DNA of 64,000 nt from Actinomycetota bacterium (GCA_013152275.1 JAADGS010000027.1:124001-188000); one strand, 5' to 3'; shown: positions 51,001 through 63,000, numbered from the stretch's first letter. Numbers: made by a program.

Positions 51001-54000
51001 GCGCGCGACGCTGGCAACGTGTCTCTTCGCCGACGTCGACCGGGCTGCCGAGGTCCGAAGAACCGCCGTCGAGGTATTCCAACGGCTCGTTCCGGGGCTC
51101 GACCTCACCGGTGCACGGCCGTTCTCGGGGTACGGGACGGTGTTCTCTCGAGCGGTGTTCAGCGATACCGTGGGTCAACTCTATGCCGGCGAGGCAGCAG
51201 GGCTCCAGGATCCGGAGTGGGGGTTTGGCCTCTGGTACGCGATGGAATCGGGTTGGCTCGCGGCCCGTTCCCTCCTCGAAGGATTCGACTATGCCGTGGA
51301 AGCATCCAGGCGTTTCGAGCTCCAGCGGCGTTCGGGCTTCGCCAATCGTCTGTTCTTTGAACATATCCCCCAAGCCATCATCCCCGTCTTGGTGCGACAA
51401 GTCGCTTCATCGAGCATGCTGCGGGAACGGCTGAGACGTCATTGGAAGCCGAATTGGGTGAAGTCCACGATTGCGTATGCCGGACGGTCGAGGCTGCGCC
51501 GGTTCACGCCGGACCGGGAGGTGAACGGCAAGGCAAGACGAAGCATGCCGGAGACGGCCGACCGATCTACACCGGGTGCCATCTTGTCTGCGCCGAGCGA
51601 CGGAGACACGATCTGAAGAGGGTCTTGTATGCCGCTGATCCGGCGTCACGCAATGATCGTCCATTCGGGCAACAACCCGTTCGGACGGGATGTCAACCCG
51701 GGAGCAGGTGGACGAGCTGCCAGGCTCCGATGAGTGGTTGAGCTATCACGCCGACGAGGATGACGCCTGCGGCGGTGACCACGACCGTGGCGCCCGAACG
51801 CCAATCCAAGACAGGCTGTGCTGCGAGGTGCTTGTCGACGTAGGCGGGAGCGATGATGCGCAGGTAGTAGAAGAGCGAGATCACCGAGTTGATCACGGTG
51901 ACGACGGCGAGCCACGTGTAACCGGCGTCGATCACGGCTCCCATGAGTAGCAGTTTCGCCGCGAAACCGCCGAGAGGCGGTATTCCCACGAAGGAGAGGA
52001 ATCCGATCGCCAAAGCTGCGGCGAGCCAGGGGTGTGGGCCTGCAAGTCCCCGATACGATTCACGGTCGGTGAGGCCGCGAAGTTGGACGACCACACCGAA
52101 TACTGCGAGCGTCGCGAGGGCGTAGGCGACCAGGAACATGAGCAGGGAAGGGATCGCCAGATCACTGCGGCCGAGTGCGACGATGGCCAGGAGCCCGTAT
52201 CCCGCCTGTGAGACTGCCGACCAACCCAGCAGCCTTCGCACATCGGTTTGCCAGAGGGCCGCGAGGTTTCCCAGGGTCATCGTGGCCGCCGCCAGGATCG
52301 CCGTCAGCGGTCGCCACCCGAGCGCGGTATCGGGGATCACCATGACCAGGCGAGCCAGGAACACGAACGCGCCGACCTTGCCGACGATCATCAGGAACGG
52401 AGCCACGGGAGCCGGCGCGCCCTCTGCAACGTCCGGCACCCACGGGTGAACCGGGACGGCACCCAACTTGAAGGCCACGCCGATCATGACGAGACCGAAG
52501 CCGACGATGAGGGCGAGTGGATCTGCACCGACGAGGCCGGTGCGCAGTCCGGTCAGCGTGGTGGTTCCGCCGAGCCCGAACAGGAATCCGACACCATACA
52601 GCGCCGTGCCGTTGGCGAGCGCTCCAAGGAGGAAGTACTTCATCCCGGCCTCGGAGGAGTTTCTCGATCGCCGGTGAAACGCAGCCAGTGTGAACCCGGT
52701 CACCGACGAGAGCAGCATGGCCACGATGAACTCCATGAGACTGGACGCGCCCGCCAGGAGCACTGCACCAAGAGTCCCAAACAGCAGGATCGCGTAGTAC
52801 TCGCCGTGGCGGGCGTCCGACCTGAACCATTCGACCGAGAGGGCCACGGTGAAGATCGTCACGACGATCAGTACGAGGGTGGCCCACCGGCCAACCCCGT
52901 CGATGGCGAGCGTGTCGAAGAACGTGAGGCGAGAAGGCCCCGCCAGGTCCTGGCCGGCGAAGAAACCGGCCGCGGCGAGTATGGCGACGGCAAACGCGCC
53001 GATCCACGCCTGGAACCGGCGCGGAGTGAAAAGGGCGACGAAGATGATCGCTATCGCCCCCAGAGCGAGCGTCAGCTCGGGGAGGACGTCCCCGAGGAAG
53101 CGCACCATCTGGGCACTCATGTCGACTCCGGCCATGTCAACCGCCCACGACGGCTCGGCTGAATGCGTTGACCACGTTGACCAGCCACGCAGGAGCGACT
53201 CCGATGACGACGACGAGCACGAGCGCCGGCGTGAGCGCGACCATCTCCGACCATCCGAGGTCCGTCCAGCCCGTCCAGCGTTCCGGCAGAGGACCGAGGA
53301 ACACCTGCTGCAACATTCTCAGGAACAGCGCAGCAGTCACGACGATCCCCAGCAGTCCGATAGCCGCCAGCCAGGGGAACACACCGAGGGTGCCGGCGAA
53401 GATCTGGAACTCGGCGACGAATCCGGCGAGGCCCGGCAGCCCGAGGCTCGCGAAAGCTGCGAGCATCATCGCTCCGGTCAATGCCGGCGCCCGGGACGCA
53501 AGCCCTCCGAACTCCCCCATCTCATACGTGTGGCCGCGGGCCAGTATCGAGCCGGACAGGAGGAACATGCTGCCGGTGATGAGACCGTGGGCGACCATCT
53601 CCACGGTGGCGCCGGTCAACGCAAGAGAGCGGGCGGCGTCCGAACCGACGAATGCCGCGCCGACCGACACGCCGAGGATCACGTAGCCCATGTGATTGAC
53701 AGACGTGTAGGCGATGAGGCGTTTCAGGTTGGTCTGCGCCATCGCAACCAACGCCCCATACACGATGCTGACGACCGCGATGATTCCGAGAGGGAGCGCA
53801 AACCTGTCGAAGGTGCCCGGCATCATCTGGAGGAGCACACGGATGAACCCGTACGTCCCCATCTTCAGCAGCACACCGGCGAGGATCGTGGAAGCCGGCG
53901 CCGGGGCGTCGACATGGGCGGGCGGAAGCCAGGTGTGGAACGGCACCAGTGGTGCCTTGATGGCGAAGCCGATGGCGATGGCCCAGAAGATGAGCGTCGA

Positions 54001-60000: not shown

Positions 60001-63000
60001 CGAACAGAAGTAGTAGGTCGTCCCTTCGTACGCGCTCGTGCCGACGGCATCGTCCATCTCAATGGTCATGCCGCAGACCGGGTCTTTCATTTTCATCTCG
60101 CACTCCTCTTGTATTGCGCGGCCGCCGACCCAGCGACGGCCATCCATTCGTTTCACTCTATCCGGTGAGGAGCCTCGTGGCTCTCCTTGATTCCTCGCTC
60201 GAACTCACCTCCTTGTGCCGACCCACCCATCTCCTTGTCGGAGTGGCCGCGTTGAGTCGGTGTTCAAGTCGTCATCTTTCTACACCTTCCATCCGCCTGG
60301 AATGTCAAGCGGACCGTGGGGAATCGTGATTTCGGACTCGGCCCGCATCGATGTGTGGAGCGTGCCTGTGCTCTTTGACCTTGGTTGGCTCCATGGGTTC
60401 CGCGTGCGGGGGTGAAGTTCGCACCTGACCTGTATTAGGCACTTGACATTCCAGTTGCCTGGAAGGTGTAACTTGCGAATATCGAGAGGAGGACCGAATG
60501 AGTGACGACCCGAATGTGACGCTGGTGACGTCAGGCGGACCGGTCGATCGGCTGGTGGGCGCCCCGGTCGTACTCGAGGCGCGCTCGGTGATGAAGAGCT
60601 ATGTCAGGGGATGGCGGAGGAGGCCGCTCAGGGTCCTTCGGGGCGCCGATCTGGAACTCCATGCGGGAGAGATCGTGGGTCTCGTGGGAGAGAACGGCTC
60701 CGGCAAGTCCACCTTCATGAAGATTCTCGTAGGCGCGCTCGATCGTGATGGCGGTGAACTCGTCCGAACGGGAACCTTTGGGTACTGCCCGCAAGAGCCT
60801 GTCTTGTATGAGCGACTCACCTGTGACGAGCATTTCGAGTTGTTCGGACACGCCTACGATCTCGATCCCGGAGTCAGCGATCGAAATCGTGACGAGATCT
60901 ACGAACGGTTCGGATTCGAAGCGTACCGGGACGTTCTCGTGGAGGAGTTGTCCGGTGGCACCCGCGCCAAGCTGAATCTCGGCGTCGCGCTCCTGGCGGA
61001 TCCGCAGATACTGTTGCTTGACGAGCCCTATGCGGGGTTCGACTGGGATACGTACCTGCGTTTCTGGGAGTTGACGGCGGAGCGGCGTGATGCCGGCCGT
61101 TCCGTGCTCATTATCAGTCATTTCGTCGCCGACGAGGGGCGATTCGACCGTATCGTGGAGCTGCGGGACGGTCGTGCGGTCGAGCGATGAAGGCGACACT
61201 GCTTACCCGCCGGTATCTGCTCGAGTATGCGCGCAGACCGTTGAATCTCGTCCTGCTGCTTCTTGTTCCTCTCGTGTTCGTCGTGCTGGTCTCGGGTGCG
61301 CTCGGCGATTTCGCCAAGGTGATTGGTGGGGTTGGCGATCCTGGCCTGTTGGCAGCTCCGAGTGCCGGATGGGCGGCCGGGTTCCTTGCCGGCGTCGCCG
61401 GTTTCTTTCATGTGCTCGGCTCTCGAAATGCCGACCGGCGGCTGGCTTCGGCGGGGTTCGGTCCTCGCCGTATCGTGACCGCTCGTCTCATCTCTGGTGT
61501 GATTCTGGCGCTCCTGGCTGCCGCATCGGCGCTCGTGGCGCTAGCGGCGCGTACCGGTCTGGCGGATCCGGTGCGAGCGATCGCGGGTTCGGTCATGTTC
61601 GCCGTCATCTACCTTGCCATCGGTGTGGCGGTCGGCTCGGTGATTCGCAACGAGGTCAACGGGTCGTTGGTCGTGATCTTCGTTTGGATGCTCGACGTGT
61701 TCCTCGGTCCGGCCATGGCCGGCGGCGACGTGTGGGTCACCCGTCTGTTCCCCACGCATTTCGTGACGTTGCTCATGCTCGACGCCCCATCCGGGCATGC
61801 GGGGTCGATCGGCGATGTGGGCTGGGCGTTGCTGTGGACTGTCGGCGCTCTGTTGCTGGCGGCCGTGTTGCTTGCATCCGCGACGAAGACACATCCTTTA
61901 CACTGGTACCGTGGCGCACGTTGGGCGTCGGTCCGTCGGGCCTGGGAGGGTCTGCGCTACGGGATGCGCGAGTACCGACGCAACATCGCCATGTGGGTGC
62001 TGCTGGCGGTGCTGCCGGTCTTCTTCATCTCTCTCAGTTTCGTCATCACTCCCGATCAGCCTGCTCCTGTGGAGTTGTCCGAGGGAGGCGTGACCACGGC
62101 CCGGTTGATCTCCATGACGGACCTCCACGGCGCGATCATGGTCCCGATCACCATCGCATTCTTGGCAGGGTTGGCCGGGCTGTTCGTGATACAGGCGTCT
62201 TCGGAGGCTGATCGCCGGCTGGTGATCGCCGGGTTCCGAACCCGCGAGATCTTGGTGGCGCGGCTCGGAGTCATCGGTCTCGCCGGTCTGATCGCGACCG
62301 GGGTGTCCCTGGCGATCACGGCGATCGACTTCACACCAGGCTCCTGGATGGGGTTTACCGTCGGTAACGTGCTGGTAGCGGTGACGTACGGGCTGGTGGG
62401 GGTGTTGATCGGTTCACTGTTTGGGCGACTTGGAGGTCTCTATCTGATGTTCCTCCTGCCCTTCATCGATGTTGGCCTCGCACAGAACGTCATGTTCTCC
62501 GCCGTTCCTCCTGCCTGGGGTGCGTTCCTGCCGGCACGGGGCGCGATGCGCGTGCTCGTCAACGCGGCATTTACGCCGAGCTTCGACCAGATCGGCAATC
62601 TGCTGCTCGCTCTCGGCTGGGTGGTAGCCCTCGGATTGGTGGCTGCCCTGGTGTTGCGCCGCACGGCCGGGGTCCAGAGCACCTGACCGGCTCCAAAGGC
62701 TGGATGAGCGATCCGCGAGGAACGCAGGGCCATATCCGACGGTTACGCATTCCGGGCCGTCGGACAAGAGGGAAGCTTCGCGAGCACACTGCCACACGAC
62801 CGCACCGGGAAGAACGCCGAGGTGGATGGGTGAACGTGGAGGGACAAGTGTCGAGAGAAGGTGTGGTTGTCGCGCTTGCTACGGCCGATACCCTCAGACC
62901 CGCCGACTGTCATGAGTCCGCTCGCTTTCGGACTTCACGATTCCTCAAGCATTCTCCGTCCCCTCGCATTTCGGGCCTCGCAGTGGTTCATCGATCGTCT

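Follow-up and report, generated by a model that had tools for sequence, protein, structure and literature searches.

What can a complex I-like operon do once its NuoB and NuoD parts have lost every cofactor? This question is raised by a third nuo-type operon in an Actinomycetota bacterium (GCA_013152275.1), which has two larger nuo operons besides, of 14 and 11 genes, both on contig C10. In the stretch of 64,000 nucleotides analysed here (the window; JAADGS010000027.1, 124001-188000), nine minus-strand genes abut one another in the order YHS-nuoA-B/D-H-J-K-L-M-N, with overlaps or gaps of 1-4 nt:

59950..60096, minus strand: YHS/TRASH small protein, 48 aa (Pfam YHS, E 1.7e-15)
59595..59948, minus strand: NuoA-like subunit
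58312..59604, minus strand: NuoB-NuoD fusion, 430 aa
59137..59208, minus strand: conserved Gly/Met linker between the two folds of the fusion (modelled with low confidence in the single chain)
57395..58315, minus strand: NuoH-like subunit, acidic E-channel residues partly degenerate
56835..57398, minus strand: NuoJ-like subunit
57120..57209, minus strand: NuoJ TM3, lined with Met, and the loop after it (Met64, 65, 69, 72, 76, 80, 81, 89, 91; Glu68; His93)
56533..56838, minus strand: NuoK-like subunit
54617..56533, minus strand: NuoL-like antiporter subunit
53137..54612, minus strand: NuoM-like antiporter subunit
51693..53135, minus strand: NuoN-like antiporter subunit

All seven membrane subunits stand in canonical order and score best against Nuo models. 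NuoC, NuoI and NuoEFG are absent from the operon, where the abutting genes leave no space for them. Gene calls, fold matches and the Cys and His columns confirm what an earlier note had described, a nine-gene operon with a cofactor-less fusion of the NuoB and NuoD folds. Mrp-like antiporter subunits beyond the three nuo-type operons were not found in the genome with the queries used.

The fusion consists of a B fold (residues 1-117), a Gly/Met linker (133-156) and a shrunken D fold (about 157-419). Structure comparison of its AlphaFold model (pLDDT 91) matched residues 1-117 to NuoB/PSST (Z 12.2, rmsd 2.3, 117 aligned) and residues 154-419 to NuoD/HycE/MbxL (Z 22-23, rmsd 2.3-2.7, about 250 aligned); among the Foldseek matches listed, 50 of 50 were NuoD-fold chains. 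None of the four cysteines that bind cluster N2 in NuoB is present. Indeed, C406 is the only cysteine, no Cys column is conserved (maximum 7 of 77 family rows and 8 of 100 more distant rows) and a CC or GAC motif is absent from 99 distant full-length rows, whereas canonical NuoB has at least three cysteines in 27/27 controls. The CxxC motif of NiFe hydrogenase large subunits, of which two are needed, occurs in 0/99 fusion rows. On the NuoD side, GPQHPSTHG aligns with GPWLPALPAG, the quinone-site His positions are Phe/Leu and Pro/Ala in the family, and the segment bearing the quinone-site Tyr is mostly deleted; a GPxHP string was seen in 3 of the 99 distant rows. The loss of both the N2 cysteines and the quinone His, as originally claimed, is thus upheld. 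Large portions of NuoB and NuoD are deleted, presumably including the contact regions for NuoC and NuoI, and His69, Asp70 and Met146 are invariant surface residues.

Judged from sequence, the proton-channel lysines of NuoL, NuoM and NuoN are intact, and the membrane arm (NuoAHJKLMN) has its central-axis Lys and Glu residues except for the NuoN TM5 Glu, the NuoM TM5 Asp and NuoH. NuoL has invariant Glu128, Lys207, His232, Lys320 and Lys374. In NuoM, Lys219, Lys250 and Glu401 are invariant and the TM5 Glu is replaced by Asp135 (Asp in 46/46). NuoN retains Lys223, Lys253 and Lys394, with Gln310 in place of the TM10 His, and has lost the TM5 Glu (Leu141 here; absent in 42/42). At NuoH Glu 192 (canonical 35/35), hydrophobic residues are among the commonest in the family, and Glu 226 has become Arg in 60 of 68 family rows. 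The idea that the operon kept the coupling site of complex I therefore holds for the folds, but not for several NuoH charges nor for the NuoN TM5 Glu.

The family subunits were also compared residue by residue with the canonical Nuo subunits of the same genomes. NuoJ residues M31, 64, 69, 72, 76, 80, 81, 89 and 91 are each found in 61/61 family and 0/36 canonical sequences, as are E68 and H93, and M65 in 60/61 against 0/36; the Met content of NuoJ is 8.4% in the family and 2.7% in canonical subunits. NuoA retains Asp70/Glu72 and has gained His50, His56, Met62, Met71, Met73 and Met96, with M62, 71, 73 and H50 in 79/79 family versus 0/29 canonical sequences. Met29, Met31 and Met70 are added in NuoK (M29 and M70 in 58/58 versus 0/28), in which both Glu35 and Glu73 are retained (58/58). 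Enrichment is limited to these three subunits: NuoH has 2.3% Met against 3.9% in its canonical counterpart, and values elsewhere in the family are 2.6% (NuoM), 2.4% (NuoN) and 1.4% (fusion). The transmembrane methionines are conserved across the aligned family, and 9/9 aligned plasmid members, at 39-54% identity, still have the core motifs (MMxxEM in NuoJ, Met in NuoK). In Mrp, the cation site lies between the NuoJ-like domain (E706, equivalent to Y59), the NuoK-like MrpC and the TM5 Glu of MrpD (PMC7419157, in excerpt). Alignment to solved subunits puts NuoJ Met65 at the Tyr59/MrpA-Glu706 position and Glu68 one turn off; so aligned, the methionines of NuoA, NuoJ and NuoK sit where Mrp binds its cation. 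That they are invariant in the family yet missing from the canonical counterparts in those genomes is, at the level of alignments, a new observation.

The YHS protein, a putative metal chaperone with Cys8, Cys31 and Cys35, is encoded immediately ahead of nuoA in 77 of 80 loci, the remaining three being broken off by a contig end, and an FCSxxC-type motif is present in 77/77. No YHS match was seen in 9/9 plasmid regions. These copies carry other metal-binding inserts inside the B/D fusion, where HMBD repeats or His/Met-rich tracts occupy the linker position (HMBD domains in three of the eight plasmid fusions listed, His/Met-rich tracts in others). Gating by YHS thus fails as a general rule, and the apparent swap of YHS for fusion inserts in plasmid relatives, as read from their sequences, is also new.

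The family is larger and better represented in culture than first reported. A profile search gave 402 clusters (50% identity) at E<=1e-30, where a different query had given 201, and NuoJ matched 32 plasmid records, nearly all from named isolates, which contradicts the statement that all carriers are uncultured MAGs. Carrier sources include soil, groundwater and sputum, and many plasmid carriers are marine. The nine-gene order spans several phyla; of the 80 loci for which it had been claimed, 43 show it complete, 36 are truncated by the edge of the locus and one (L056) breaks off after nuoJ. L056, L058 and a Pseudonocardia plasmid are truncated or broken-looking copies, and within the class the operon turned up in no more than 3 of 151 genomes. 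A quick NuoH tree, midpoint-rooted and with a long-branch warning, sets 32 family rows apart from 18 canonical ones (SH-aLRT 100), supporting the proposed separate branch of complex I.

The operon is headed by a MerR-type promoter, of which further copies were found:

60277..60308, minus strand: MerR-type operon promoter (TTGACA, 20-nt spacer with dyad, TAGAAA)
60443..60467, plus strand: second box copy, promoter of divergent ABC-2 exporter genes (60498-62686)
50219..50243, plus strand: third box copy, ahead of the gene for an FAD oxidoreductase (50408-51616)
63920..64000, minus strand: MerR-family regulator gene, 3' part only; the gene continues beyond the window to contig position 188387

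Three matches in the window compare with none in 100 shuffles; the box has 10 copies genome-wide, recurs in 2 related genomes recovered and precedes the operon in no more than 4 of 67 other family loci. It fits a CueR-regulon-like promoter, whose consensus has a long spacer with an ACCTTCC..GGAAGGT-like dyad, the spacer here being 20 nt. Two copper-type P1B ATPase genes are preceded by it, but it also heads genes for type II GAPDH, glutamate dehydrogenase and FAD oxidoreductases, so that co-regulation does not imply transport. The MerR gene is divergent from a fourth copy and likely encodes the cognate regulator. Its product combines Cys77 with Cys120/126 and matches CadR/PbrR (100 bits) better than CueR (91), both below cut-off; it looks like a Cd/Pb/Hg-type regulator, so a divalent metal may act as inducer. 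CueR itself was rejected as its identity: Cys77 is present, where CueR presumably bears Ser, and the protein falls below all MerR-subfamily cut-offs, with CadR/PbrR as best match. Three-Cys MerR regulators are also found in related loci.

With self-hits discounted and only flanks of 5 kb or more counted, metal-resistance markers, mostly for copper, accompany 30 of 52 family loci but 0 of 21 canonical ones. This contrast overstates the enrichment, because the markers searched for had been drawn from flanks of the family itself, canonical nuo operons belong to housekeeping regions and plasmids carry many metal genes in any case. The other 22 family flanks had no marker once self-hits were removed, and the own-genome baseline is 10 of 257 10-kb windows. 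Multicopper oxidase is the commonest marker (10/52), and in Arthrobacter FB24 its gene lies 87 nt ahead of nuoA; genes for cytochrome c biogenesis and for CopC/CopD recur, CusA, CopA, CsoR and CueR are further neighbours, and cadmium-resistance, CDF and ZIP genes are close to some copies. Annotated copper genes were present in 8 of 9 plasmid regions viewed; no metal gene lies within 11 kb of the Rhodococcus copy. These flanks, and the promoter type shared with two copper ATPase genes, are new as well.

With complex I the operon shares seven membrane subunits, the NuoB/NuoD folds, the central-axis Lys of NuoL/M/N, the NuoK Glu pair and the NuoA Asp/Glu; it differs in the missing NuoC/I/E/F/G, the fused and shrunken B and D without N2 Cys or quinone His/Tyr, the loss of the NuoN TM5 Glu and several NuoH charges, and its Met-lined A/J/K, YHS gene and metal-type promoter. 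Ehr complexes, like the fusion, have no NiFe cysteines, and their small subunit has Fe-S cysteines. The D-like domain resembles HycE and MbxL (Z 22-23) of group 4 [NiFe] hydrogenases (Mbh, Mbs, FHL), but unlike these and Ehr, the small-subunit domain lacks Fe-S cysteines and the membrane arm is of complex I type. A Met-lined transmembrane path occurs in Ctr1, whose unrelated fold makes the analogy functional only. The same applies to CusA, a proton-driven Cu(I)/Ag(I) antiporter with a Met ladder (PMC7558416, in excerpt). Mrp (CPA3) likewise uses the fold without redox chemistry, and the altered region corresponds to its cation-coupling site (PMC7419157, in excerpt). Unlike Mrp, the operon has three antiporter subunits instead of two, plus NuoH, NuoA and the B/D cap, with Met at the E706 position and Glu, not His, in the NuoK/MrpC subunit. 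MrpE/F/G are absent from the operon and from the 75 recurrent neighbour representatives scanned.

A survey listing as a partial Nuo cluster had been anticipated, and such an operon is in print: the "partial NDH-1 operon 2" or nuoAHJKLMN of Salinispora, Kocuria and Streptomyces, described in the consulted sections as patchy, horizontally acquired and proposed for osmotic/marine adaptation, with an unassigned gene between nuoA and nuoH-J-K-L-M-N (PMC3314556, PMC6002675, PMC6676996). Those sections contain no Met, YHS or copper-transport argument. Actinomycete plasmid members have the same order, by which the two are likened and are probably one family; among the 120 of 3025 NuoJ matches listed, Streptomyces and Pseudonocardia appear and neither Salinispora nor Kocuria does. 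In Marinobacter atlanticus CP1, a nuo-like cassette that lies in a copper-resistance cluster and is co-expressed with it, compared by its description, has seven genes (nuoADHJKL) with a short NuoL and no nuoMN (PMC8233155, in excerpt).

These data support descent from complex I, with Fe-S and quinone chemistry lost and the channel lysines of the antiporter-like subunits retained; they do not support the generic Mrp-like ion of the earlier note and favour soft metal ions, copper first. With slightly better than even confidence, we infer transport, metal and direction as those of a pmf-driven Cu(I)/Ag(I) exporter. An accessory, YHS in trans or a fusion insert, would hand the metal to the cytoplasmic face, and the B/D protein would be a scaffold that caps NuoH. 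The metal ion might pass along the Met sites of NuoA TM2, NuoJ TM3 and NuoK TM2/3, at the Mrp cation-binding place, while protons moving through NuoL/M/N along the central axis would push it outward. Overall, complex I would run in reverse with a metal ion replacing quinone chemistry, and Cu(I), possibly also Ag(I), would leave the cytoplasm at the cost of proton-motive force. At assumed potentials, 3-4 H+ from three antiporter subunits would yield about 50-65 kJ/mol, close to one ATP, and could sustain a 10^6-10^9-fold gradient. Besides the CadR/PbrR-like regulator, the scarcity of the box at other family loci, the non-transport genes that it also heads and the flanks without markers, further points speak against an exporter: NuoN without its TM5 Glu could interrupt the axis just ahead of the proposed site, and hosts already own copper ATPases.

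Unlikely, in our estimate, is a generic Na+(K+)/H+ antiporter or a device for pH or osmotic homeostasis under metal stress or in seawater. It would suit the intact proton residues, the new NuoJ Glu68 near the MrpA cation Glu, the failure to find other Mrp-like subunits with our queries, the marine plasmids and the same-order operon of marine actinomycetes (PMC3314556, PMC6002675, PMC6676996, in excerpt), but leaves about 20 family-specific Met, the YHS/HMBD accessories and the copper context unexplained. Carriers from soil, groundwater and sputum, and a NuoK with complex I glutamates and not MrpC histidines, also argue against it. Thioethers, moreover, bind Na+ poorly. A redox-active proton pump, with copper cycling between Cu(I) and Cu(II), or a metal held by YHS, as electron carrier or with NuoC/NuoI docking in trans, seems improbable to us, although B and D folds are kept with invariant surface residues, the host has two full nuo operons and copper redox energy was proposed for the Marinobacter cassette (PMC8233155, in excerpt). 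N2 ligands and quinone His/Tyr are gone, NuoH quinone-side charges are eroded, large NuoB/NuoD parts are deleted, no YHS match was seen in the 9 plasmid regions, and Met-rich sites suit Cu(I) trafficking over redox cycling (PMC7558416, in excerpt).

Copper might instead be imported, or delivered to exported cuproproteins (multicopper oxidases, cupredoxins), as the frequent multicopper oxidase, including that of Arthrobacter, and recurrent CopC/CopD and cytochrome c biogenesis genes could suggest; we find this rather improbable, given the box common to copper-export ATPases, the CusA, CopA, CsoR and CueR neighbours, and the fact that cation import requires no three-subunit proton engine. Export of a different soft metal, be it Hg, Cd, Pb or Zn, in place of Cu/Ag is very improbable: the three-Cys MerR regulators and the cadmium-resistance, CDF and ZIP genes point that way, but the membrane ligands are Met and not Cys/His/carboxylate, the P1B ATPases with the same box are copper-type and copper-specific genes predominate among neighbours. 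Hardly credible is a functionless, decaying remnant; the lost cofactors, broken-looking copies and rarity in the class are set against an intact order in 43 of 80 loci from several phyla, invariant new residues and 402 clusters. If copper export is indeed its role, this complex I derivative would use the proton gradient for metal, not for respiration.

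The nine-gene operon claimed in an earlier note is present in the window on the minus strand, and its neighbouring genes overlap or lie 1-4 nt apart.

51693..60096, minus strand: operon YHS-nuoA-B/D fusion-nuoH-J-K-L-M-N
58312..59604, minus strand: NuoB-NuoD fusion (430 aa), Gly/Met linker between B and D parts
About 180 nt upstream of YHS: promoter TTGACA-20 nt-TAnnn with internal dyad (the box)

Pfam matches along the operon were YHS, Oxidored_q4, Complex1_49kDa, NADHdh, Oxidored_q3, Oxidored_q2 and three times Proton_antipo_M; the fusion has a second, weak match to Oxidored_q6 (E 0.017), and no NCBIfam model scored above cut-off for it. 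In its structure model (pLDDT 91, alignment of 108 rows), structural comparison assigned residues 1-117 to the NuoB fold (Z 12.2) and residues 154-419 to the NuoD/HycE/MbxL fold (Z 22-23), with concordant Foldseek results. Profile alignment to canonical NuoB and NuoD revealed that the N2-cysteine segments are deleted or replaced, that both positions of the quinone-loop His are altered, and that the quinone Tyr segment is mostly absent together with other large NuoD stretches. The fusion has a single Cys, and the largest Cys column reached 7/77 in the close family and 8/100 among distant representatives (the query and 99 full-length of 147 new rows). Model, alignments and Cys columns bear out the idea of two folds lacking the N2 cysteines and the quinone His. 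Fusions in two compared loci have shrunk further (L150:9194-10102 and L148:13057-14064, annotated as 302 and 335 aa) and miss more of the D domain, so this cap tolerates large losses. In a Sulfitobacter plasmid (L149:8675-11090), B and D are annotated as two adjoining ORFs, the D part beginning within an HMBD repeat, which is either a natural split or a sequence error; an additional antiporter-like gene lies upstream on the opposite strand. Another locus (L058:2187-2995) has a second nuoA and a partial B/D copy, inverted, upstream of the operon. The window's genome also contains two ordinary nuo operons, both on contig C10.

The operon is real and conserved. Profile search gave 980 proteins at E≤1e-10 (8000 candidates scored) and 402 clusters at E≤1e-30. 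Among the best 80 of 137 confirmed genome loci, which belong to Actinomycetota, Chloroflexota, Gemmatimonadota and a few other phyla, the nine-gene order is complete in 43, cut by the locus end in 36, and ends after nuoJ in one. In that one locus, L056 (4691-5300), nuoJ is His-tailed and no nuoK lies within ~1 kb beyond it. Distribution is patchy: sampling 151 genomes of the host class gave three carriers, the window's genome included. Plasmid records were matched by NuoJ (32) and by the fusion (15), and include Halomonas, Arthrobacter, Roseivivax, Sulfitobacter, Rubrobacter, Pseudonocardia, Rhodococcus and Mycobacterium; cultured carriers therefore exist, and the earlier note's statement that all carriers are uncultured MAGs does not hold. 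NuoJ matched seven Mycobacterium plasmid records (M. avium, M. intracellulare, M. paragordonae and one further species), and in the one viewed the full operon adjoins ArsR and P1B ATPases, a copper type among them. A quick, midpoint-rooted NuoH tree, subject to a long-branch warning, separated 32 family and plasmid rows (24 of 68 and 8) from 18 of 35 canonical rows with SH-aLRT 100.

For the membrane arm, the window's own protein is counted within the family. NuoL keeps Glu128, Lys207, His232, His316, Lys320 and Lys374, each in 50/50. NuoM keeps Lys219, Lys250 and Glu401 (46/46), with Asp135 at the TM5 Glu position. NuoN keeps Lys223 (40/42), Lys253 and Lys394 (both 42/42); it has lost the TM5 Glu (0/42; Leu141 aligns to E. 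coli E133) and has Gln310 in place of His. NuoK Glu35/Glu73 and NuoA Asp70/Glu72 are invariant in the family. NuoH keeps Asp205 and Glu213; the canonical Lys52, Lys56, Glu57 and Glu192 are absent from the main residues at those positions, Glu226 is replaced by Arg in 60/68, and position 143 is Gln (33), Glu (21) or Gly (12) versus Glu in 35/35 canonical proteins. Judged by these residues, the proton engine of the NuoL/M/N arm looks live and the quinone-side link looks eroded. Of the coupling site that the earlier note described as kept, the folds remain, but several charged residues of NuoH and the TM5 Glu of NuoN are gone.

Compared with canonical subunits from the same set of genomes, methionine content is 8.4% versus 2.7% in NuoJ (61 and 36 rows), 6.7% versus 3.0% in NuoA (79 and 29 rows) and 7.8% versus 4.4% in NuoK (58 and 28 rows), the significance being overstated by kinship among family rows; NuoH has 2.3% versus 3.9%, and the fusion, NuoM and NuoN 1.4-2.6%. 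Positions that are Met in at least 96% of the family and in none of the controls number ten in NuoJ (within TM2-TM3 and the loop after it), four in NuoA and three in NuoK, whereas NuoJ M78, NuoK M32/M37 and NuoA M94 are common to both and are not evidence. NuoJ Glu68, NuoJ His93 and NuoA His50 are family-invariant and new relative to the controls. The core Met motifs are retained in 9/9 aligned plasmid members, with certain positions variable; NuoA His50 is missing in all three HMBD forms. When NuoJ and NuoK were compared with solved structures, by profile and by single sequence, no MrpA or MrpC chain was matched, so the comparison with Mrp runs through NuoJ Met65, which aligns in sequence to Tyr59 of solved NuoJ. 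PMC7419157 treats Tyr59 as the counterpart of MrpA Glu706 and locates the cations bound by Mrp between Glu706, the histidines of MrpC and the TM5 Glu of MrpD. By this route the added methionines and Glu, and the Glu lost from NuoN, map to the Mrp cation-coupling site, where they may cluster in three dimensions. In CusA, Met ladders form the Cu(I)/Ag(I) path, as described in the available part of PMC7558416.

Metal-binding accessories accompany this site. A YHS gene lies immediately 5' of nuoA in 77/80 loci (the other three are cut), with an FCSxxC-type motif in 77/77. No YHS match was found in the nine plasmid regions examined; there, the B-D linker position is occupied by 2-5 HMBD domains in Sulfitobacter, Rubrobacter and Nitratireductor, by His/Met-rich tracts in Arthrobacter, Rhodococcus and Mycobacterium, and by a Gly/Met linker like that of the window's fusion in Halomonas and Roseivivax, so the latter form can occur without YHS nearby. 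In the YHS subfamily His-rich tracts are rare (fusion 1/77, NuoJ 1/61). Modules that can replace one another in this way suit metal delivery better than they suit a fixed redox centre. Two complex predictions pairing YHS with residues 1-420 of the fusion, the alignment supplied, scored 0.00 with controls that were not folded, and are uninformative on binding. Elsewhere in the genome (L003:4093-6579, contig C31), a CopA with N-terminal YHS (37% identity to the operon's), acidic/His-rich linker and HMA is followed by a cupredoxin gene.

Recurrent neighbours of the operon include CusA/CusB, multicopper oxidases, cupredoxins, P1B ATPases, CsoR, CopY-type and MerR regulators, CopB, CopD, DUF305 and DUF302. 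Where flanks reached 5 kb or more (52 of 80 family loci, 21 of 30 control loci), metal-resistance markers were present in 35/52 family versus 0/21 control flanks (30/52 minus self-hits and 26/52 with a stricter set, each again versus 0/21), with the limits that queries were drawn from family flanks, controls are housekeeping loci, some loci are close kin, and MerR and RND matches are not specific to copper. The genome baseline was 10 of 257 segments of 10 kb, and 22/52 family flanks carry no marker once self-hits are removed. Family counts include L022, L054, L100 and L106 (genomes G008 and G026, flagged unpublished); L054 and L022 supplied the CusA and DUF305 queries. Independently of the markers, copper genes are annotated in 8/9 plasmid regions, picked from 32 for diversity; the exception is the Rhodococcus copy, which has IS elements on both sides and no copper genes. 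In the window, a DUF302 gene (48604-49008), of a family often near copper genes, lies 2.7 kb downstream of nuoN. On the Halomonas sp. KO116 plasmid, which has an IS-like element just 5' of nuoA, egtB/egtD (ergothioneine; L147:23093-25365) begin 52 nt after nuoN, which suggests a co-transcribed metal-binding thiol.

The box occurs three times in the window (0 in 100 shuffles) and ten times in the genome. Copies precede the gene of a YHS-HMA-CopA ATPase, an operon that joins type II GAPDH to a copper ATPase, another of glutamate dehydrogenase and FAD oxidoreductase, an ABC-2 exporter and further genes; one is divergent from a MerR gene 4 kb away. It stands upstream of the operon in 4/67 other loci and in both relatives found in the host-class sample. 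A sigma-70 scan found no operon promoter because only 16-18 nt spacers were allowed; upstream, a CsoR-like box was not above shuffles (1/67 loci versus 0-4) and the 19-nt CueR pattern was found in 0/67. The archaeal-type GAPDH and the copper P1B ATPase form one box-headed operon (L001:9314-10510 and 6987-9317, contig C93), with the glutamate dehydrogenase operon upstream. GAPDH is reportedly a copper target (PMC6350627), and these operons may supply back-up enzymes under copper stress. The FAD oxidoreductases encoded at window 50408-51616 and L001:10722-11885, both geranylgeranyl-reductase-like, are paralogues and lie in box-controlled units, and the ABC-2 exporter (window 60498-62686, ATPase and duplicated-domain permease), divergent from the operon, has relatives in two other loci. 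The neighbouring MerR protein (L004:1921-2388, window 63920 onward; His-rich tail) apparently controls copper ATPases. Its three cysteines, with Cys77 where CueR has Ser77, and its top score to CadR/PbrR, below cut-off, weigh against a plain copper reading. Together with similar proteins in L012, L028, L052 and L073 it possibly forms an undescribed copper-sensing MerR subfamily.

By defining features the operon is neither complex I, Mrp, Ehr nor hydrogenase; most likely it works like Mrp with a copper-type site. Without electron input the arm would be unable to pump, and could only couple downhill proton entry with another ion; the modified NuoA/J/K site and the accessories point to a soft monovalent one. 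At an assumed pmf of 170 mV and membrane potential of 140 mV, 3-4 H+ (49-66 kJ/mol) would sustain an outward gradient of 10^6-10^9, and 2 H+ only ~10^3. Cytoplasmic Cu(I) is very tightly buffered, and three antiporter subunits may have been retained because a high H+ stoichiometry is needed. We lean, by a small measure, towards export of Cu(I)/Ag(I), and see an even chance of an uncharacterised multi-subunit, high-stoichiometry Cu(I)/H+ antiporter class derived from complex I, in which a methionine-lined metal site replaces quinone chemistry and chaperone modules (YHS, HMBD, His/Met tracts) are interchangeable.

Na/H antiport or pH homeostasis would suit the live-looking arm and the marine settings in the literature, and the methionines and copper neighbours make it rather improbable. 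Retained redox activity, for which the YHS metal site could be invoked, appears no likelier given the missing Cys columns and altered quinone loop. Import or delivery of metal by the same pathway seems a little less probable beside CusA/CusB and P1B ATPases, and export of other metals, to which the CadR/PbrR score might point, less again beside the annotated copper genes. Decay of a nuo operon, to which the lost cofactors and the truncated copies might be ascribed, is extremely improbable given the conserved gene order and the invariant new residues, and was rejected as the identity of the operon, as were NiFe hydrogenase and true Mrp; frameshift or mis-assembly was rejected since the reading frames are open in many genomes.

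A horizontally acquired nuoA-hypothetical-nuoHJKLMN operon, considered a marine or osmotic adaptation in the accessible text of PMC3314556, PMC6002675 and PMC6676996, probably belongs to the same family. PMC8233155 reports a nuoADHJKL cassette of seven genes whose expression goes with that of copper genes, and suggests copper redox; as described, this cassette differs in gene make-up. In the literature covered, mostly outside subscription papers, we found no description of a Met-lined or copper-transporting complex I derivative; surveys and supplements may list it. Because annotation presents these genes as NADH-quinone oxidoreductase subunits, and they have been taken to serve marine adaptation or respiration, metabolic inferences drawn from them are probably wrong. 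How coupling works in complex I remains under debate (PMC10212512). If the exporter reading is true, a cofactor-free three-antiporter complex with a metal site for the quinone trigger would allow the axis to be studied without redox chemistry, and would test, in a naturally occurring system, whether the proton axis can be driven by nothing more than charge at the NuoJ/K site. Cultured, tractable carriers (Halomonas sp. KO116, Arthrobacter sp. FB24, Roseivivax marinus) make the idea testable now. Under the exporter reading the operon would also provide a pmf-driven, ATP-free route by which copper crosses the cytoplasmic membrane outwards, and metal biology would gain a new class of copper export, found on plasmids and islands of several phyla.
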